The notes under the pieces were generated by a model that was given only the letters and a program-made list of their open reading frames with translations, ran no database searches and was not told the origin of the DNA. The position numbers were made by a program, and so were the translations under genes. From positions 1-64,000 of IMG/VR virus record IMGVR_UViG_3300025769_010106: a stretch of DNA of 64,000 bases; one strand, written 5' to 3'. Below are positions 8,996 through 36,227 of the stretch, piece by piece. Position 1 is the first letter of the stretch. Every line of letters begins with the position of its first letter. This DNA comes from a virus.

Positions 8996-9928
8996 ATGCC
9001 GTTTAATATCCCGACGATTGATATCGGACAATCTTTTTCTAGTGATAGTGTATATGCTGAATCTCAGGCGAACTTACTTAGAGAAATACTGATTGAGTAC
9101 GGATTTTTTTCTGTAAACAATCATAATATCGATACTAAAATAATAAAGACTATTGAATCAAAAGCTAAAGAGTTTTTTAGTTGTAGTCCAGAGCAAAAAA
9201 ATTTATGCATAGGTTATTTAGAATCTACTGGATCCACAAGATTTATACCTGGCAATAGTCATATGCAAAACCTTAGAATAGTGCCAGATCATTTTTTTTC
9301 TAATAATCATAAATTATTGCAGTATGAAAATAGAAGGTTGGAATCAGTTGGTAAAACTATAGATGATTACATGCTTTTACCCAAAGACGATATTGTTGAC
9401 GGATTTGAAAGTGCTACAAGATCATATATTAATGCAATGAGCAGTGTTGCAAATAAACTACTTCCGCTATATGCAAGAGCACTAAACTTAGAATATAACT
9501 ATTTCAATAATTTATTCACTGATCCTTATTGGATTTTCTACTGTAAATATTATCCTCCATATTCAACCTTAGAAAATCAATATGGGTTAGCTGAGCATAG
9601 TGATTTAGATTTTATTACTATTTTACCATTATCAAGTGTGCCAGGCTTAGAGATTTTAGTGGAAAATTCTTGGCAACCTGTAGGTTATAAAGAAAATAGT
9701 ATTTTAGTTTTTACAGGTGATTTCTTACATCGTTGGTCTAACGGTCTTTGCAAAGCAGCAGTACATCGTGTTACAATTCCAGAAACAGATAGGTATTCTT
9801 TTCCTTTTCATTATAATCCTAATTTTGATGTGACTGATGAATCTTTACCAAGTTGTATAAATGAAAACCCTATTGTCGATTCTCCTCTTACGCTATTTGA
9901 TTTTTTACATAAAAGAACATTGTTATGA
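8996..9928 (+). CDS. 2OG-Fe(II) dioxygenase, isopenicillin-N-synthase-like family
   Basis: IPTIDI, GFFSVNNH, YYPP, HSD facial triad, HRV, RYS. Confidence 0.88.
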   Translation: MPFNIPTIDIGQSFSSDSVYAESQANLLREILIEYGFFSVNNHNIDTKIIKTIESKAKEFFSCSPEQKNLCIGYLESTGSTRFIPGNSHMQNLRIVPDHFFSNNHKLLQYENRRLESVGKTIDDYMLLPKDDIVDGFESATRSYINAMSSVANKLLPLYARALNLEYNYFNNLFTDPYWIFYCKYYPPYSTLENQYGLAEHSDLDFITILPLSSVPGLEILVENSWQPVGYKENSILVFTGDFLHRWSNGLCKAAVHRVTIPETDRYSFPFHYNPNFDVTDESLPSCINENPIVDSPLTLFDFLHKRTLL

Positions 9929-11031: not shown

Positions 11032-11632
11032 ATCTGGCTTCGGCTTTATTGACTTATTGTTTAACCTGTTAGTAGGTTTTACATTCATGTTTATTCTGGC
11101 TTTTATTCTAATAAATCCAGTAGCGAAAAAAGCAAGTGTAGATCCAAAGGCGGAATATATTGTATTGGTAACATGGGATGATACTAGTACTTATGATATA
11201 GATACATGGGTAATGGATGACCAGAATAACATTATAAGTTTTAGACGTAAAGACCATGCTCTTATCCATCTAGAAAGAGATGATATGGGTATTAGTAATG
11301 ATAGGTTTATTGATAAGGATGGTAAAGAGAAGATACGACAGATTAATAGAGAAGCGGTAAGTATACGTTCAAGGGACCCTAGAGTCTTTTATGTAAGTTT
11401 ACATTGGTTTAGCAATGGTGGTTCACAAACTTCAGACCCTATTGATGTTACTGTAGAATTTATATCAGTAAATCCATTCGTATCAATATCAACTAAAACA
11501 GTTACGCTAACTAAAACTGGGCAAGAGATACCAGTCTATAGAATAGAAATATTTGATGATAAATCAGTGGACGTTGAGGATAGCAATACTCATATAATTT
11601 ATAGTGATACTAACTTACGGAAAGAATGGTAA
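11009..11632 (+). CDS. ExbD/MotB-like single-pass membrane protein
   Basis: FIDLLFNLLVGF..FILINP N-terminal TM with conserved Asp; follows the TolQ-like gene. Confidence 0.65.
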   Translation: MANKPRYKSGFGFIDLLFNLLVGFTFMFILAFILINPVAKKASVDPKAEYIVLVTWDDTSTYDIDTWVMDDQNNIISFRRKDHALIHLERDDMGISNDRFIDKDGKEKIRQINREAVSIRSRDPRVFYVSLHWFSNGGSQTSDPIDVTVEFISVNPFVSISTKTVTLTKTGQEIPVYRIEIFDDKSVDVEDSNTHIIYSDTNLRKEW

Positions 11633-26691: not shown

Positions 26692-27372
26692 ATGAGAAAG
26701 ACTTCCGAAATAATCCGAGAGCGCATGCAGGCAACTAACAAGCGTTTTCATAGCAATGACAACATCAGTGATTTTATTCAGGATGGCGAACTAGAACTAC
26801 TACAGCAAGAAGTGGAAGAACGATTCCAAGAAGTTTTGGACGCTCTAGTCATTGATACAGTGAACGATCACAATACACAAGAAACAGCAAAGCGTGTTGC
26901 TAAGATGTTCGTAAATGAAACATTTGGCGGACGTTATCATCCAATGCCACGGGTTACGGCATTTCCTAATATGGGTTACAAGAGCATGTATACCAGCGGC
27001 CCTATTAGTATCCGTAGTACCTGTGCTCACCACTTCCAAAACATCGTGGGCAACTGCTGGGTAGGAATTATCCCAGAAGATGAAGTAATTGGACTTAGTA
27101 AGTTCAATCGCATCATTCACCATATCGCTGAACGCCCACAGATTCAGGAAGAAATGACTACACAGATTGCAGAAGTACTAAAAGAATATGCAAAGACAGA
27201 GCATATCGCTGTGGTAGTTAAAGCCGAGCACCATTGCATGACGGCCCGTGGTGTTCGGGAACATGAGAGCGATATGACTACCGCAGTTATGTGTGGTGGT
27301 TTTCTCACAGACCCAAGTGTTAAGCAGGAGTTTTACAACATCTGTTTAAGCATGAAGGGTCATGGCAACTAA
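26692..27372 (+). CDS. folE: GTP cyclohydrolase I
   Basis: TAKRVAKM, STCAHH, GLSKFNR, QIQE, HHCMTARG. Confidence 0.95.
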   Translation: MRKTSEIIRERMQATNKRFHSNDNISDFIQDGELELLQQEVEERFQEVLDALVIDTVNDHNTQETAKRVAKMFVNETFGGRYHPMPRVTAFPNMGYKSMYTSGPISIRSTCAHHFQNIVGNCWVGIIPEDEVIGLSKFNRIIHHIAERPQIQEEMTTQIAEVLKEYAKTEHIAVVVKAEHHCMTARGVREHESDMTTAVMCGGFLTDPSVKQEFYNICLSMKGHGN

Positions 27373-28438: not shown

Positions 28439-31400
28439 ATGATGACTCATTTTAAAACTATTGCAGGAGCATTGCTAGCCACCACAATGCTTACAGCGTG
28501 TCAGGGTGGCAGTTCAAATCCTGTTAAAGCTATCAATTCCGTTAAGGCTGAACTTAATCCTGTTGTAAACAGTAACTTTGGTGCTATTGCAGGCGAAATT
28601 TCTGCACTGGAAGCAATCGTAAATGAGGCAACCGGATCAGCAACTATTAGTGCTATTTTAAATCCCACAGAAGCAGATAAACGCACTGCTGAAAACATTG
28701 TATCTCGAATCGATGATGTTATTAACGGCTGGGAGGCACATAAAGCAGAATATAATCCAAAACTACTTGCTGTTAAAATGAGTTCTGAGGACTTTCGTCG
28801 TGCAGAAGCAGTTGTTAAAATTTTAAAAGAGGATCTACGTCCAGTTATTGTTGACGTTACCAATGGTAAGGGCTACGACACTGAAGCATTTGCTTTTCTT
28901 GAGAGTAAAGAAAAGATTGATGGTGTTATTGATAGTAAAAAGATAAAAATCTTTGAAAATGTAGTACCTACTCTAATTAGTTCAAACGTCAGTAGCGTAA
29001 CGGTAGACAAAACTAGTGCTGCTACCAGTCCTGATCGTCTTAAGGAAACTATTGTAGTTGATGGCGAGCAGACTGTAACTGGCGGTTCTAGCATTTCTGA
29101 TCTAACACGTACCGCTACTTGGGTAAAGACAACTACAAAGAAGATGGAGTATGATCGTAGTTGGACGGTTACACTACAAAATGTAACCACATATGTTTAC
29201 AGCGATGGTAGCACAAAAACTGAACGTAGTGAAATCCGTGAAGTACCTTATACACAGACACTTTCAGCTGCTGACATTGTTACTACACAGGACATGTCAC
29301 AGAACATTGCCTATACAGTTGAAGAACAAAACGATCCAACTACAACTGTCACTCGTGGCGAAACGGTTGTAGTAAATGAGTATGTGGATCGTGTTGAAAC
29401 TGCTACGCAGGAAGATGGTAGTAAGGTACATAACACCATTCGTACTACTACAACCACAAGCACTACGCCTGTCACTACTACACTAACATATCCTAAGATT
29501 AGTGTGTACACATACACAGATGGACATTCATTTACTCATGATGCTACAGATGAAGTGGTTAGTAGTACAGAAGATGAAGTTGTTGTCAATACAAGTGAAG
29601 CAACTGTAGAAAGTACTACAGAGCATGTTGTAGCGAGTGAAACCGTTACAAACGAAGTTATTACAGACGTAACAGAAGCTGATCCAGTATTTGATACAAC
29701 CTATGAAGACAAGACAACTAGTGAAACTGTAGACGGTAAATTAATTACTACTGTAACACGTTATTACACGACCACTGCTACTATTGTTACTACAACTACC
29801 ACAAACACAACTCCTGTGACAAAACAGATTTGGACTGATGGTACTGAGAAACTAATTCGCGGTGAAACTGTAGTTGAAACTAGTACTGAAAATACTGTAG
29901 TGACAGATAGTTGGACTAAGGTTATGAGCACCACAACAGAGGATGCTCCTGCTGATAGTACACCTATTGCAGACGATCATCCTGACATGGGCACACGTAC
30001 CGCAGGGTTCAACAGCAATCCTGTAAGCTATCGTACTTCAGAGTTCAATGGAACTTCTGGTCAGAACTACAAGCAGGCAATTAACGCAGACGTTGCATAC
30101 TCCCGTGGTTGGACTGGTAAAGGCAGTCTAATTACTATTGCTGATACTGGTTACGATAAGGATCACTCAGACCTTGCTGGTGCAGTTAAACATGAGTTCA
30201 ACACTCTAACAAATGATGCGACGTTTATGGATGACAACGTTGGTCACGGTAGTCATGTGTTGGGTATTGCGGCTGGACGTAAGAACGGTAGCGGTACACA
30301 CGGTGTTGCATTTGATGCAGACGTTGCAGTAGTTAAAGTAACTGATAGCACTGGCTACAGTTTCCAACGTGCACGAACAGGCGCTGCCTGGGCACGTGAT
30401 TTGGGTAGTGTTGCGTTTAACGTTAGTGCTAACTCACGTGAAGACTCAGCATTTAGAGCAAGTCTTACTCCAACAGGTACTACTGGTGTCCAGTATAGTA
30501 ATCACTGGTACTACGGTGAGAATGGATACAATGGTGCTGTAGACGAAGCCAAGTTGTGGGCAACTGCATTAGGTAGCGAACAGATCCTTGTGAACAGTGC
30601 TGGTAACTTTGGCAAGGATTATGTATCGGGTACTGGTCAGATGGCCCATGCTACAGATTCTAATGGCAACCTTATTATGGGCGGGCGTATGCTAATCGTT
30701 GGCTCATATGATCTTGCTAACAATAAGATTGCTAGTTACAGTAACAAGGCTGGTACAGTTTGTGCTACCTGGGACTTTACAAACAATCTCTGTAAAGATG
30801 CTGCCAAGGCAAGTGACTTCTATATTCTTGCACCAGGCGATAACATTCAGAGTGCATATAAAGACGGTACTAGTGTTAACATGAGTGGTACTAGTATGGC
30901 AGCACCTGTTGTTACTGGTGCACTTGCTATTGTACATCAGATGTGGCCTCACATGAAGGGTGAGAACCTGGTTAAACTGTTGCTGGTAACGGCAGACAAG
31001 GACTTGCCTGGCTATGCTGAACACACACATGGACAGGGTATGCTGGACTTGGACAAGGCTACACAGCCTGTAGGTGCAACTGGTATTCCTACCAGTGGAC
31101 GTACTGATGGCGAGATTGCCAATCTTGAAACATTAAGTGGTGGTGCTGGCATTGGTAATATTAGTAGCGATGCTTTTGCGGCACTAAGTAATGTTACGGT
31201 GCTTGATAGCTTTGAGCGTGATTTTACAATCAATCTAAACAACACTCAGGCTATTGATACTCGTCCTGGATCGTCAACAGAAGCACTAAGTTTTGGTGCA
31301 GACTATGACGGTTACTGGAACCTTGCTAATGCAGGCGAAGCCACTAGTGACTTGTTTGGTATTAGGACATCATTTAAGTTTGATCCAGATGCTAAAACAA

Positions 31401-32005
31401 ACGCTGACTGGGGCATGCGTACAGAGTATGATGTACATAGTAGCGAAGAAACTACTATTACTGCCGCACTTGGTATGATTAAGGAGACAGGTAAGTTCCT
31501 TAACAACGTTCAGGAAGGCTTTATGGGAGTTGGTGAGTCACACACCACAAACTATGCAGGCTTGCGTCTCAATCACAAGTTTGATGAGAACTGGTTTGGG
31601 TTTGGTAACTTCCAGTTGGGCATGACAGACGTTGAGTCATCCAAGGAGTTTAGTCTAGTAACTGGGTACAGCACCCTAGTAAGTAACAGTTGGGGTGTCG
31701 GTGCAGGTTACAAGTTTACTAACGGGTGGACTGTTGGCGCTAACTTTAGTCAGCCAATGACAGTTACAAGCGGTAAGATGAACTACAAGGTTCCAGTAGG
31801 ACGTACACTTGACGGACAGGTATTATTTAATGAAGGAAGTGCTGATGCAAGTACGAAAAATATTGAATATGATACCGGTTTGTTTGTAAAATATAATGTA
31901 AACAATGTTGCACTTGCTGGCTATGCAGAGCATCGTAGCAATGTTGCAGGCGTCGACGGTAACAACGAAGTTAACCTAGGCGTTAAATTGAACTTGAAGT
32001 TCTAA
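28439..32005 (+). CDS. Lipoprotein S8 subtilisin-like protease with Thr-rich stalk and C-terminal beta-barrel-like domain
   Basis: LTAC lipobox; IADTG, HGSHV and GTSMAAP catalytic triad; NSAGN; alternating beta strands ending LNLKF. Confidence 0.88.
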   Translation: MMTHFKTIAGALLATTMLTACQGGSSNPVKAINSVKAELNPVVNSNFGAIAGEISALEAIVNEATGSATISAILNPTEADKRTAENIVSRIDDVINGWEAHKAEYNPKLLAVKMSSEDFRRAEAVVKILKEDLRPVIVDVTNGKGYDTEAFAFLESKEKIDGVIDSKKIKIFENVVPTLISSNVSSVTVDKTSAATSPDRLKETIVVDGEQTVTGGSSISDLTRTATWVKTTTKKMEYDRSWTVTLQNVTTYVYSDGSTKTERSEIREVPYTQTLSAADIVTTQDMSQNIAYTVEEQNDPTTTVTRGETVVVNEYVDRVETATQEDGSKVHNTIRTTTTTSTTPVTTTLTYPKISVYTYTDGHSFTHDATDEVVSSTEDEVVVNTSEATVESTTEHVVASETVTNEVITDVTEADPVFDTTYEDKTTSETVDGKLITTVTRYYTTTATIVTTTTTNTTPVTKQIWTDGTEKLIRGETVVETSTENTVVTDSWTKVMSTTTEDAPADSTPIADDHPDMGTRTAGFNSNPVSYRTSEFNGTSGQNYKQAINADVAYSRGWTGKGSLITIADTGYDKDHSDLAGAVKHEFNTLTNDATFMDDNVGHGSHVLGIAAGRKNGSGTHGVAFDADVAVVKVTDSTGYSFQRARTGAAWARDLGSVAFNVSANSREDSAFRASLTPTGTTGVQYSNHWYYGENGYNGAVDEAKLWATALGSEQILVNSAGNFGKDYVSGTGQMAHATDSNGNLIMGGRMLIVGSYDLANNKIASYSNKAGTVCATWDFTNNLCKDAAKASDFYILAPGDNIQSAYKDGTSVNMSGTSMAAPVVTGALAIVHQMWPHMKGENLVKLLLVTADKDLPGYAEHTHGQGMLDLDKATQPVGATGIPTSGRTDGEIANLETLSGGAGIGNISSDAFAALSNVTVLDSFERDFTINLNNTQAIDTRPGSSTEALSFGADYDGYWNLANAGEATSDLFGIRTSFKFDPDAKTNADWGMRTEYDVHSSEETTITAALGMIKETGKFLNNVQEGFMGVGESHTTNYAGLRLNHKFDENWFGFGNFQLGMTDVESSKEFSLVTGYSTLVSNSWGVGAGYKFTNGWTVGANFSQPMTVTSGKMNYKVPVGRTLDGQVLFNEGSADASTKNIEYDTGLFVKYNVNNVALAGYAEHRSNVAGVDGNNEVNLGVKLNLKF

Positions 32006-32476: not shown

Positions 32477-32910
32477 ATATTTTCAAAAATAGAAAAAGAA
32501 TTATACTAGATCGCATTGGGCAACAGCCCTATCTAGAAAGGTATTACCTGTTCCTAAAAGATCGTAAATGGTTTCCATTTAACGTCTTCTTACACAAGTT
32601 TTTACAAAGTGATCCAGACGAACTACACGATCATCCTTGGCCCTACTTCACGCTAATCTTACGTGGAGGTTATTGGGAGACTACTCCTAAAGGACGCTTT
32701 TGGCGTGGCCCAGGGCATATGCGTGTTAACGGTCCTAAGAGTCTACATCGTGTAGAACTAGAACCAGGAGTATGTGCTTGGTCACTATTTTTTCCTGGTC
32801 CTAAACTACGTGAGTGGGGTTTCATTGTAAACGGTAAATGGATGCACAATGAAAAGTATTTTGAATGGCGAAAGCAGAAGGTAAGAGATGAACAAACTAT
32901 ATCTGTCTAA
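32473..32910 (+). CDS. Cupin-like protein
   Basis: LHDHPW..LILRGGYWE...HRV. Confidence 0.7.
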   Translation: MNIFKNRKRIILDRIGQQPYLERYYLFLKDRKWFPFNVFLHKFLQSDPDELHDHPWPYFTLILRGGYWETTPKGRFWRGPGHMRVNGPKSLHRVELEPGVCAWSLFFPGPKLREWGFIVNGKWMHNEKYFEWRKQKVRDEQTISV

Positions 32911-33400
32911 TCGAGATATTGAAAAAGGCGTACATGATATTGTAAACTCAATGTATGCTGACAACTGGCGGCCCGATTACATTGTAGGTATTACACGAGG
33001 TGGATTAATTCCTGCTGTAATGATGAGTCATCTAACTGGTATTAAGATGCACACACTGGACGTTCGTTTGCGTGATGGCGATGAACAACAATCTAACTAT
33101 TGGATGGCAGAGGATGCATTTGGGATCTTTCAAATGGGCGGCACATATGAAGATAAGAAAATTCTTATCTTAGACGATATTAACGATACTGGTGCTACAT
33201 TCCAATGGATCAAAGAAGATTGGCCGGCAGGCTGTCATCCAAATGAACGCCGATGGGATAAAGTTTGGCATAACAATGTTCGGTTTGCTACTATTGTGAA
33301 TAATCTATCCAGTAAGTTTGAGATTGATCACGCTAGTATTGAAATCAACAAAGCAGAGGAAGACACATGGGTTGTTTTCCCATATGAGGAGTGGTGGTGA
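32888..33400 (+). CDS. Type I phosphoribosyltransferase (xanthine/guanine PRT-like)
   Basis: GITRGGLIPA, LILDDINDTGAT PRPP loop, WVVFPYE. Confidence 0.88.
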   Translation: MNKLYLSNRDIEKGVHDIVNSMYADNWRPDYIVGITRGGLIPAVMMSHLTGIKMHTLDVRLRDGDEQQSNYWMAEDAFGIFQMGGTYEDKKILILDDINDTGATFQWIKEDWPAGCHPNERRWDKVWHNNVRFATIVNNLSSKFEIDHASIEINKAEEDTWVVFPYEEWW

Positions 33401-33996
33401 TGCACGTACCATTATTTGAAACACACAAAGACTGGATTACTGAAGAAGAACATGGCATGTTACAAGCATTGGTGTTGTATGCTCCACGCTGGCGTTTTGG
33501 TCAGGTAAGCGACGATACAATCCAACCAAACTATCCCATGTGGTTCCAAAACTTTTGGAATATTGGGACATTTGAGTTCAAACCAGATCAAGAGATAGTG
33601 ACCAATCTGTTATCACAGCTAAAAGATAGATTTTTAAAGCTATGTCCCAGTAATTATAAACTAGTTAGGTTTATGGCTAGCAGCAATACATTTGGTATTG
33701 ATGGCGATATCCATACAGACTGGCCACATCCTGATGTAAGCATTACCGGTGTGCTCTATACAGACAAGGTATGGGAACAGAACTGGGGCGGCGAAACAGC
33801 GCTCTACAAGGATGGCATTGTAGAAGCTAGCGAATATGAACCCAGAAAGCTCATTACGTTTGATAGCAGTATTGCCCATATAGGCAAAGGACCGCAGCGA
33901 CGTTGTAAGGAGATGAGAACAATTCTAGCGTTTCAAGCAGTTAGCGAAGACGCTCTAAATGCTAGAATGAACAAAAAGGTTGACTCTGAATTATAA
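33400..33996 (+). CDS. 2OG-Fe(II) oxygenase
   Basis: HTD, WGGET, FDSSIAH, R. Confidence 0.8.
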   Translation: MHVPLFETHKDWITEEEHGMLQALVLYAPRWRFGQVSDDTIQPNYPMWFQNFWNIGTFEFKPDQEIVTNLLSQLKDRFLKLCPSNYKLVRFMASSNTFGIDGDIHTDWPHPDVSITGVLYTDKVWEQNWGGETALYKDGIVEASEYEPRKLITFDSSIAHIGKGPQRRCKEMRTILAFQAVSEDALNARMNKKVDSEL

Positions 33997-34008
33997 ATAC
34001 CCTACAAT
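33980..34008 (+). promoter_or_regulatory. Dual promoter for queD: sigma70 TTGACT-N17-TACAAT with a late TATAAATA (33992-33999) in the spacer
   Basis: Both consensus elements read directly. Confidence 0.65.
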
Positions 34009-34017
34009 ATTAATCAT

Positions 34018-34076
34018 AGAGGACTTAGTGTTCGTTCCCTCTCTAAAAATTCCGCACACTCCATAACCAAGGAGTA
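34018..34076 (+). ncRNA. Candidate preQ1-I-like riboswitch in the queD leader
   Basis: P1 AGAGG/CCTCT, C before the P1 3' strand, A-rich linker, P2 AGTGT/ACACT, competing ACTCC/GGAGT anti-SD. Confidence 0.5.
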
Positions 34077-34081
34077 TAAAC

Positions 34082-34555
34082 ATGGCAAAGTATATTAGTA
34101 CAAAAACATATAGGCACCTAGGTCCCGTTGCATACAGACAGTGGCGAGCAGATTCACATTGTAATCTTATCCACGGATATGCACTGAGTTTTCATTTCGA
34201 GTTTGAAACTGATGACCTTGATGCTCGAAACTGGGTAGTAGACTTTGGTGGATTACGTCCACTAAAGGACAGCTTAGAAGATTGGTTTGATCACACTCTG
34301 CTAGTAGCACAGGATGATCCAGACCGCGACACGCTACTAGAACTAGGCAAGAAAGGCCTAGCAAAGATTACAGAAGTTGAAAAGACTGGATGCGAGGGTC
34401 TATCAGACTTTTTGTATGAGTATGTAAACACAATATTTTTACCTAGTTGGGAACCTGGCACCAGGGTATGGTGCTGTAAGGTTGAGGTAAGAGAAACTGA
34501 CTCGAATATGGCTATGCGAGTTGGTCACAGAGAAGATGGAGAATTTGATGTTTAA
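34082..34555 (+). CDS. queD: 6-carboxy-5,6,7,8-tetrahydropterin synthase
   Basis: CNLIHGY, VVDFG, FDH, GCE, VRET. Confidence 0.9.
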   Translation: MAKYISTKTYRHLGPVAYRQWRADSHCNLIHGYALSFHFEFETDDLDARNWVVDFGGLRPLKDSLEDWFDHTLLVAQDDPDRDTLLELGKKGLAKITEVEKTGCEGLSDFLYEYVNTIFLPSWEPGTRVWCCKVEVRETDSNMAMRVGHREDGEFDV

Positions 34556-34763
34556 AAGTTTATGGAACATGTTAACTGGCTCAGGCAGTATTAAAGACAT
34601 TGTTAAGATAGCAACAGTATCAGAAGCTGAGCTCAAGAAGATGACCAAGAAGCAGATTGATGACTGGGCTGTAAATGCAGGTGTTACACTTGATCGTCGT
34701 CTTACAAAGGACAAGATGATTGCCGAGCTAAAGACACATAAATCACAAGTTAATATTACCTAA
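34548..34763 (+). CDS. Small protein with Rho-N/HeH-like tail
   Basis: LKKMTKKQI..A...G..LDRRLTKDKMI. Confidence 0.5.
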   Translation: MFKSLWNMLTGSGSIKDIVKIATVSEAELKKMTKKQIDDWAVNAGVTLDRRLTKDKMIAELKTHKSQVNIT

Positions 34764-34772
34764 GAGGTTATA

Positions 34773-35636
34773 ATGAAAGTAAGATACACTGAAGCGTTTT
34801 ATTCAGTTCAAGGAGAAGGTCGCTGGACAGGTGTGCCCAGTGTTTTCCTTCGCATGTATGGTTGTAACTTTACATGTCCTAAGTTTGGCATTGCAAGAGA
34901 CAGTAACGAAACAGCAGAGCCCCATATCAATAAAATTGTAGATGAGATTGACAAATACAATAGCATTGATGAGCTACCACTTGTAACAGTTGGATGCGAT
35001 AGTTATGCAGCCTGGCATCCCGCATTTAAACGATTCCAGCATGATGTTGATATTGATCAACTAGTAGACGATCTGCTTGCACTTACACCAACAGGTTCTT
35101 GGACATTGGACAATGGACAGGATATCCATTTGGTTATTACAGGCGGTGAACCCTTGCTTGGTTGGCAACGAGCATATATACAATTATTCAAACACGAACG
35201 CATGAAGGACCTAAAGAATGTTACATTCGAAACTAATACTACACAGAATTTGTCTGACGATCTCAGATCGTACCTCACAGATAATCAACATGTACACATT
35301 ACATTCTCTTGTTCCCCTAAACTATCGGTTAGTGGACATACTTGGGTTGATGCTATCAAGCCTAATGTTGCTGTTGAGTACGCTAGTCTTCGTAACAGCC
35401 ACTTGTATCTTAAGTTCGTTGTTTGCGATGATGTTGACGTGGCAGAAGTTGATCGAGCTGTTGCAGAATATAGATCTGCAGGACTTGAAGCGCCGGTTTA
35501 CCTCATGCCAGTCGGCGGTACGACGGACAGTTACTTCAAAAATGGCCGCCAAGTCGCAGAGCTCGCCTTACAAAAAGGCTACAGATATAGTCCACGGCTC
35601 CACGTTGACATCTTTGGCAACGCCTGGGGAACCTAA
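34773..35636 (+). CDS. queE: 7-carboxy-7-deazaguanine synthase (radical SAM)
   Basis: FYSVQGEG..G.PSVFLR..GCNFTC..CDS, TGGEP, ETN, SPKL, SPRLH. Confidence 0.92.
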   Translation: MKVRYTEAFYSVQGEGRWTGVPSVFLRMYGCNFTCPKFGIARDSNETAEPHINKIVDEIDKYNSIDELPLVTVGCDSYAAWHPAFKRFQHDVDIDQLVDDLLALTPTGSWTLDNGQDIHLVITGGEPLLGWQRAYIQLFKHERMKDLKNVTFETNTTQNLSDDLRSYLTDNQHVHITFSCSPKLSVSGHTWVDAIKPNVAVEYASLRNSHLYLKFVVCDDVDVAEVDRAVAEYRSAGLEAPVYLMPVGGTTDSYFKNGRQVAELALQKGYRYSPRLHVDIFGNAWGT

Positions 35637-35669
35637 TCCTGAGGAAAAGTTTCGTAAGGCTGGCATTTT

Positions 35670-36227
35670 ATGAAAACCATCTGGGTTAGACATGGTGAGT
35701 CAGAATATAATGCCAAAAACTTAGCAACAGGCTGGCATGATCCTCTACTCACAGAGAAAGGCATAAACCAAGCAGCAAAAACTGCTAAAGAACTTGCTAA
35801 TCGTTATCAGTCAGTTGATAGCATCCATTGCAGTGATTTAAAAAGAGCTGCACAAACAGCAAGTATCATCGTTCAATTAACTCCATGGTTTGTTGATGTT
35901 AAAATTGATCCAAGGCTTAGGGAACGTGATTATGGTACTTGGTCTGGTTGCGATAAAAATCAAAATAAACTAAGTGTGGGTCAAGAACAATATTTAGCCA
36001 TAAGGAGAGGTTGGAAAACAGCACCGCCTGAAGGCGAAAGTCTCGAACAAACCTCAGTAAGGGTAGCAGACTATTTGGACAATATAGAACAAAGTAATGT
36101 TCCAATTATTTTTGTATGTCACGGAAATACTATAAGAGCAGCAAGTGTAATTTTTGGTAAAAATACACCGGAATCTGTTGTAGACTGGGAAATAGAGACT
36201 GGAGGTTTCGTAGAATGGGAATACTAG
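35670..36227 (+). CDS. Histidine phosphatase (phosphoglycerate mutase family)
   Basis: RHGES, SDLKRA, LRERDYG, GES, HG. Confidence 0.9.
   Translation: MKTIWVRHGESEYNAKNLATGWHDPLLTEKGINQAAKTAKELANRYQSVDSIHCSDLKRAAQTASIIVQLTPWFVDVKIDPRLRERDYGTWSGCDKNQNKLSVGQEQYLAIRRGWKTAPPEGESLEQTSVRVADYLDNIEQSNVPIIFVCHGNTIRAASVIFGKNTPESVVDWEIETGGFVEWEY

Follow-up and report, generated by a model that had tools for sequence, protein, structure and literature searches.

Class I preQ1 riboswitches (preQ1-I) are the described RNAs closest in layout to the element reported here. In their types I–III, exemplified by B. subtilis queC, T. tengcongensis, C. antarcticum and E. coli yhhQ, L2 holds a highly conserved cytidine as specificity base, and the minor-groove edge of the ligand is read by a uridine conserved in L1 and by the adenine at the end of L3 (PMC10622847). 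Their short P2 3′ strand includes the first nucleotides of the Shine-Dalgarno sequence (SD) or feeds a terminator, and the output is OFF. To our knowledge, few phages encode riboswitches for their own use, and a riboswitch class confined to phages would, if true, be new territory.

The locus studied here lies in a 64,000-nt stretch (the window), positions 1 to 64,000 of IMG/VR record IMGVR_UViG_3300025769_010106; the record as a whole is a 108-kb fragment of an uncultured jumbo phage and is estimated to be 31% complete. A queD-like gene is preceded in the window by a leader of 66 bases, for which an earlier note had proposed a preQ1-I-like pseudoknot, and a coordinate check of the window sequence found all the bases named there at their positions. 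A sigma-70-type promoter is predicted upstream on the plus strand, with TTGACT at 33980–33985, a 17-nt spacer and TACAAT at 34003–34008. It has 10 of 12 matches and is the sole sigma-70-like site that a consensus scan finds within 33800–34800, in agreement with what had been noted before. The promoter overlaps the 3′ end of the preceding 2OG-Fe(II) oxygenase-like ORF, and close relatives have a similar promoter directly upstream of P1. Judged from the promoter, the transcript would start at ~34015, 2–3 nt 5′ of P1.

Read on the plus strand, the window copy begins with the P1 5′ strand AGAGG (34018–34022), whose partner is CCUCU (34038–34042). L1 is ACUU (34023–34026), with an invariant CU at 34024–34025 and a first base that is A, U or C among relatives, and it leads into the P2 5′ strand AGUGU-U-CG (34027–34034). 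L2 (34035–34037) consists of UU and the unpaired C34037, an invariant base and the candidate for the specificity base. The 10-nt L3 is CTAAAAATTC (as RNA CUAAAAAUUC; 34043–34052), and it is followed by the P2 3′ strand CG-C-ACACU (34053–34060). In P2, AGUGU at 34027–34031 pairs with ACACU at 34056–34060, and CG at 34033–34034 pairs with CG at 34053–34054 beyond the U34032.C34055 mismatch, both bases of which are invariant. A covariance model of the motif finds one copy in the whole record. The nested fold of the window leader is unremarkable against chance in single-sequence folding (z = −0.37), so a fold of this one sequence cannot carry the claim, and the support is comparative.

The motif and preQ1-I have in common the H-type pseudoknot with a 5-bp P1 and the cytidine at the 3′ end of L2, right before the P1 3′ strand (PMC10622847). 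They also share an A-rich L3, in the motif long enough that it could lie along the P1 minor groove, and a place before a 7-deazaguanine-pathway gene, and many motif copies contain the preQ1-I-identical words AGAGG...C-CCUCU-(A/U)UAAA. An ordinary preQ1-I member, binding preQ1 and repressing, would be expected to show just such an AGAGG/CCUCU P1, such a C, such an L3 and a queuosine-pathway gene. Other features differ. At the positions where preQ1-I has its L1 uridine and terminal L3 adenine, the motif conserves neither base, and its L3 ends in Y-U-C. P2 has 5–10 bp with an invariant U.C mismatch, whereas that of preQ1-I has 3–4 partly non-canonical pairs, and L2 is only 2–3 nt long, unlike its preQ1-I counterpart. 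In most copies the P2 3′ strand measures 5–10 nt, and with the SD 5–26 nt farther on, outside the knot, the knot cannot bury it. Instead, the 3′ end of P2 overlaps a predicted anti-RBS helix, and the predicted output is ON, as opposed to OFF in preQ1-I. Finally, the motif occurs almost exclusively in uncultured phages, unlike preQ1-I.

Searches with known RNA families gave the same separation from preQ1-I. No Rfam 15 family matches the window at its gathering threshold, and none, RF00522 (threshold 39 bits) included, matches the 201-nt slice 33950–34150 at E ≤ 10. Run alone on the 108-kb record, RF00522 gives five weak matches elsewhere and none at 34015–34084, and ten diverse related loci have no Rfam match, RF00522 included. 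Membership in the preQ1-I family as Rfam defines it, which the earlier note had proposed to check with the Rfam preQ1 covariance models, thus fell through at the site in the window, the record and the relatives alike. With no RF00522 match and a longer P2 that leaves out the SD, the motif is, by these sequence comparisons, preQ1-I-like in layout and not a member of the family; it may descend from a preQ1-I aptamer. Carriers of the motif also lack TGT/DpdA and have just two marginal partial matches to QueC (see below). Ordinary preQ1-I membership, which we regard as hardly probable at all, was rejected on the missing RF00522 match, the SD outside the knot and the pathway without QueC or TGT/DpdA. 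Rfam models of other small pseudoknots that surround their ligand with a loop strand set in a helix groove (SAM-II/SAM-V, guanidine-III and preQ1-II) have no match either, and their conserved nucleotides and gene associations differ. The motif is undescribed in the full-text literature searched and absent from the Weinberg 2017 catalogue of 224 motifs.

We regard it as close to certain that queD leaders contain this pseudoknot as a genuine, conserved cis-element. We aligned 150 aptamers, 146 of them distinct. Their core is a 44-nt H-type pseudoknot with a P1 of 5 bp and a P2 made of two junction pairs, the invariant U.C mismatch and 3–7 outer pairs. Among the 146 distinct leaders, paired cells amount to 93.4%, compared with 70.7% in column shuffles (0/500 reach the observed value), and drop to 36%–53% when the partners are slid by 1–3 columns. 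The covariation score is 0.582, against 0.181 in the control, and 8 of the 12 pairs show changes on both sides. The knot with its P1, P2, mismatch and unpaired C therefore stands as it was first described, and the covariation check on queD leaders of related phages that had been suggested for it came out in its favor. P1 is 99.6% paired, with G-C/C-G/U-A and A-U/C-G exchanges; the variants among relatives are AGAGG/CCUCU, AGCGG/CCGCU, ACCGG/CCGGU and AUCGG/CCGAU. P2 is 89% paired. Its five outer pairs were absent from every search pattern, and the outer helix is 86%–92% paired at its first four positions, with 4–6 pair types each.

Many of the "invariant" columns of this large alignment were set by the search patterns themselves. 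Independent support for them comes from the protein-harvested loci, from the 73 of 73 matches to a pattern that left the mismatch unspecified and from the 64 of 64 loci that were collected through their protein only. The U.C mismatch and its junction pairs (C-G and R-Y) are present in all 73 distinct matches, although the pattern had not specified them, and so is UCR in the P2 5′ strand, which was likewise not required; the earlier suggestion that P2 extends over one mismatch is borne out by these counts. A base other than C before the P1 3′ strand was found in 0 pattern matches, against at least 119 with C. L1 has a variable first base (A 83, U 43, C 33) followed by an invariant C-U. The consensus of L3 is N-W-A-N-A-N-A-Y-U-C, 10 nt and rarely 11, with an invariant A at positions 3, 5 and 7.

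The association with queD was approached from the protein side and from the RNA side. A search of IMG/VR for QueD relatives at the protein level yielded 80 loci, 45 of which have the leader motif, with compensating changes. Three more, with the motif at L064:2663-2706, L077:2749-2794 and L078:2753-2795, were added by the covariance model and have a small ORF between motif and queD. This ORF, of 58–88 aa and unrelated to queD, comes after the motif and platform and ends right before queD, and by this arrangement the element would control the first gene of a short operon and not queD directly. An RNA-only pattern that used no gene information had at least 119 matches. Among the 80 loci listed for it, 78 have the motif 9–45 nt before a QueD homologue with 30%–100% identity to that of the window; of the two exceptions, one leaves the contig end, and the other stands before a 306-aa protein that is also of the PTPS family. 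In a second pattern, any P1 5′ strand was allowed and the common P1 3′ strands were excluded. It brought in the new P1 3′ strands CCGGU and CCGAU, and 74 of its 81 matches have the matching ACCGG or AUCGG and a QueD gene; the remaining seven have neither the partner strand nor a QueD gene and look like chance. In both RNA-only searches the matches stand upstream of QueD-family genes, and the tie to queD first seen in the window extends beyond it. The motif is also abundant. Retrieval by protein alone of the QueD clade that is ~40% identical to the window's matched more than 600 stretches, and all sampled copies have the motif: every invariant position is intact in 64 of the 64 loci with enough upstream sequence. 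Across hundreds of uncultured phages, then, the motif is found directly upstream of a QueD-family gene or of an operon containing one, a conserved covarying structure in cis to functionally coherent genes, as is expected of a riboswitch.

These comparative data are compatible with a protein partner too, and queD is the only gene that is always with the motif. The leader might be a protein-binding translational operator, in the simplest case one by which the QueD-like enzyme regulates its own synthesis, with binding shifting the balance between P2 and the anti-RBS helix. Pseudoknot operators are established in phages: the pseudoknot in the T4 gene 32 leader exerts translational control of a phage mRNA as the operator for the gp32 protein. 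Ribosomal-protein leaders can be likened as well. The T4 element is another pseudoknot of a phage leader, but it is tied to gene 32, whereas the motif is tied to queD and laid out as a metabolite aptamer, in a copy of the small-molecule aptamer of queD's own pathway. Moreover, the motif stays unchanged before QueD proteins that are just 30%–40% identical, of both the HGY and the HGH (L152) types, and it occurs before the unrelated small ORF in L064, L077 and L078. We give a protein operator a small chance.

The predicted output depends on what the P2 3′ strand competes with. In the window, an anti-SD sequence ACUCC (34058–34062) can pair with the SD GGAGU (34071–34075), which lies 6 nt 5′ of the ATG (34082). 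The anti-SD has 34058–34060 in common with P2, so that P2 and the anti-SD hairpin are mutually exclusive. P1 together with the anti-SD hairpin is the minimum-energy fold, and since the hairpin alone is worth −6.3 kcal/mol and P2 alone −3.7 kcal/mol, the default state should hide the RBS, and a stabilization of the knot by ~3 kcal/mol would free it. The Vibrio vulnificus add adenine riboswitch, a translational ON switch with an anti-SD competitor, is alike in that its aptamer helix and its RBS-sequestering helix share few nucleotides and binding frees the RBS; its aptamer is a three-way junction of the purine type, unrelated to the motif in fold and sequence.

The platform differs by clade, and the overlap of the P2 3′ end with an anti-RBS helix recurs. 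The helix is ACUCC/GGAGU in the window type, CCUC/GAGG in relatives with the SD GAGG, and CCUAUG/CAUAGG in the ACCGG and AGCGG types (L208 is an example of the ACCGG type and L091 of the GACUUUCA type). In a large group, the last three bases of P2 plus AUC pair with the start-codon region GAUGRC. Compensating changes back these helices: ..YCAUC goes with GAUGRC in 53 of 53 distinct platforms and ..CAUUG with CAAUGGC in 5 of 5, and GCC is found solely with GGC. Complementarity between the P2-3′-end segment and the RBS averages −6.95 kcal/mol, compared with −3.88 kcal/mol in shuffles (mean z −1.9), and is significant at p ≤ 0.05 in 42% of leaders; the CGCCGU-type clade has no clear helix between the two. 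Accessibility of the RBS over the whole ensemble rises from 0.37 with the knot free to 0.56 with the knot locked, which is not above composition-matched shuffles (0.37 to 0.53; p = 0.65 and 0.11). The ON reading hence rests on the targeted complementarity and the clade compensations. The geometry that the earlier note had proposed is upheld in the three shared bases and in these compensations, and not in ensemble accessibility, where the leaders behave like shuffles. On this sequence evidence, ON is the likely direction.

On the minus strand, the consensus scan also reports a terminator-like hairpin with a T-run at 34055–34078. This call arises from the anti-SD hairpin and the A-rich L3 read in reverse complement, and it is probably incidental, because the flanking genes are both on the plus strand. 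Chance or a minus-strand terminator as the source of the structure was ruled out on the orientation of these genes and on conservation that tracks the plus-strand structure.

Taken at its simplest, the leader would be the aptamer and expression platform of a phage-specific candidate riboswitch with ON logic, a reading that we hold at somewhat better than even. In the ligand-free transcript, P1 and the ACUCC/GGAGU hairpin would form and the SD would be hidden. A ligand with a guanine-like Watson-Crick face would pair with C34037 at a site flanked by P1 and the junction pairs of P2, and the bound ligand would stabilize docking of the 3′ strand (34053–34060) into P2. Formation of P2 would take 34058–34060 away from the anti-SD hairpin, free the RBS and turn queD translation on. 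The same leader could also act with no ligand, as a constitutive or temperature- or Mg2+-responsive mRNA stabilizer, translation enhancer or uncoupling barrier. The ensemble accessibility change that does not exceed shuffles would fit such an element, as would the position of the motif 2–5 nt past an upstream stop codon in many clades, where structure could modulate coupling. However, C34037, the U.C mismatch, the CU of L1 and the A-N-A-N-A-Y-U-C of L3 are strictly kept across deep divergence, which is typical of a pocket and not of a roadblock, and the clade-specific compensations in the competing helix point to a two-state design. A ligand-independent role thus seems quite unlikely.

What a riboswitch at this site might sense can be approached through the gene it precedes and its neighbors. 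The queD-like gene (34082–34555, plus strand) encodes a 157-aa protein of the PTPS/QueD T-fold family (Pfam PTPS, 2.6e-14; phrog_2389, 8.7e-41). Its score against the NCBIfam QueD equivalog is 32.7 bits, well under the cut-off of 89. In profile comparisons the best solved relatives of the QueD-like proteins are QueD enzymes, and alignment shows that the family retains Cys27, His31, Asp70 and His71, so that the catalytic Cys, Asp and His are kept. Two of the three zinc histidines of the canonical relative L152 are replaced by tyrosine, and HGH becomes HGY (SHCxxxHGY); L152, a canonical HGH-type QueD, is also preceded by the motif. The next gene downstream (34773–35636, plus strand) is a queE-like radical SAM gene (phrog_2076, 2.3e-52), of whose product the NCBIfam QueE models match the N-terminus only, below cut-off. 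The gap between the two genes is 217 nt (34556–34772), holds just an 80-aa TTG ORF that overlaps the end of queD, and has no second copy of the motif by the covariance model.

Upstream on the same strand are GTP cyclohydrolase I (FolE), with which the pathway begins (26815–27342; PF01227, 158.7 bits), and a purine-type phosphoribosyltransferase (32888–33400; Pfam Pribosyltran, 2e-13; weak match to xanthine PRT), and the record also encodes a histidine phosphatase. The module of FolE, phosphoribosyltransferase, QueD-like, QueE-like and phosphatase genes thus occupies 26815–27342, 32888–33400 and 34082–36227. Right upstream of the module, at 28439–32005, lies an ORF of 1188 aa whose product has a serine protease domain of the subtilisin/mycosin-like kind. 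We compared 18 other motif-bearing records (G001-G018), two of which are estimated to be complete. A QueE-like gene is present in 18/18, FolE in 15/18 and a phosphoribosyltransferase, clustered near QueE/FolE, in 10/18. Neither QueC nor TGT/DpdA is found in the window's record; among the other 18, TGT/DpdA is found in none and QueC is represented by two marginal partial matches only. This context, already read as speaking against preQ1 from the window, thus recurs among the carriers. The pathway seems to stop at 7-carboxy-7-deazaguanine (CDG) or a derivative, possibly made into a nucleotide, and preQ1 is accordingly an unlikely ligand. The FolE/QueD-like/QueE-like/phosphoribosyltransferase module suggests that a 7-carboxy-7-deazaguanine-type base is converted to a nucleotide by a route other than DpdA. 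Our best guess at the ligand is a compound with a guanine-like face; CDG or another 7-deazapurine would qualify, as would guanine or a pterin, for example the substrate of QueD. The enzyme draws on the pool of folate precursors, and a switch that turns it on when the precursor is sensed would make sense, though this we infer only.

A broader reading, which we put forward tentatively and at a little under even chance, is that the motif represents an undescribed, phage-restricted riboswitch class. It would have arisen by descent from or convergence on the preQ1-I fold and would combine an altered pocket with a non-preQ1 ligand and ON logic, gating a deazapurine-nucleotide module that is independent of QueC and DpdA. 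The altered pocket in this reading consists of the U.C mismatch, the C-U in L1 and the Y-U-C in L3. If the phage-restricted class is real, the smallest known aptamer fold has been adapted to a different ligand and an inverted output. At 44 nt, the element is suited to structural work. The ligand would tell what the widespread phage FolE/QueD/QueE module makes without QueC and DpdA, and the RNA, through whatever binds it, offers a direct handle on the question of the phage 7-deazaguanine product.

The distribution of the motif outside uncultured phages is very narrow. In 185,579 species genomes, the AGAGG-type pattern has one match, L206:5069-5113, again before a QueD-like gene. It lies on a 17.4-kb contig of a Crocinitomicaceae MAG, possibly a prophage or a phage contig that was binned with it, and might hint at the host. 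The closest QueD-like genes of cultured phages (Acidovorax ACP17, Xanthomonas X1 and BUDD, Synechococcus BUCT-ZZ01) have neither the leader nor the motif, and blastn with three leader types against 50,697 phage records returned noise only. The module's gene set also occurs in the cultured cyanophage BUCT-ZZ01, where the genes are tightly packed and the leader is absent.

Two variations in arrangement were seen among the carriers. In the MTYY-type clade (L333-L412), the motif starts 2–5 nt after the upstream stop codon, e.g., UAAUGAGAGG. A terminating ribosome would unwind P1 in such leaders, and a link to upstream translation is possible. L316 has two copies of the motif 2.2 kb apart, at 9177-9221(-) and 11408-11452(-). 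After one of them come a full QueD-like gene, a short-chain dehydrogenase and a C-methyltransferase, in this order; after the other come a 42-aa N-terminal fragment of a QueD-like gene and then a 672-aa B12-binding radical SAM gene. The double copy looks like the result of an insertion that duplicated the leader.
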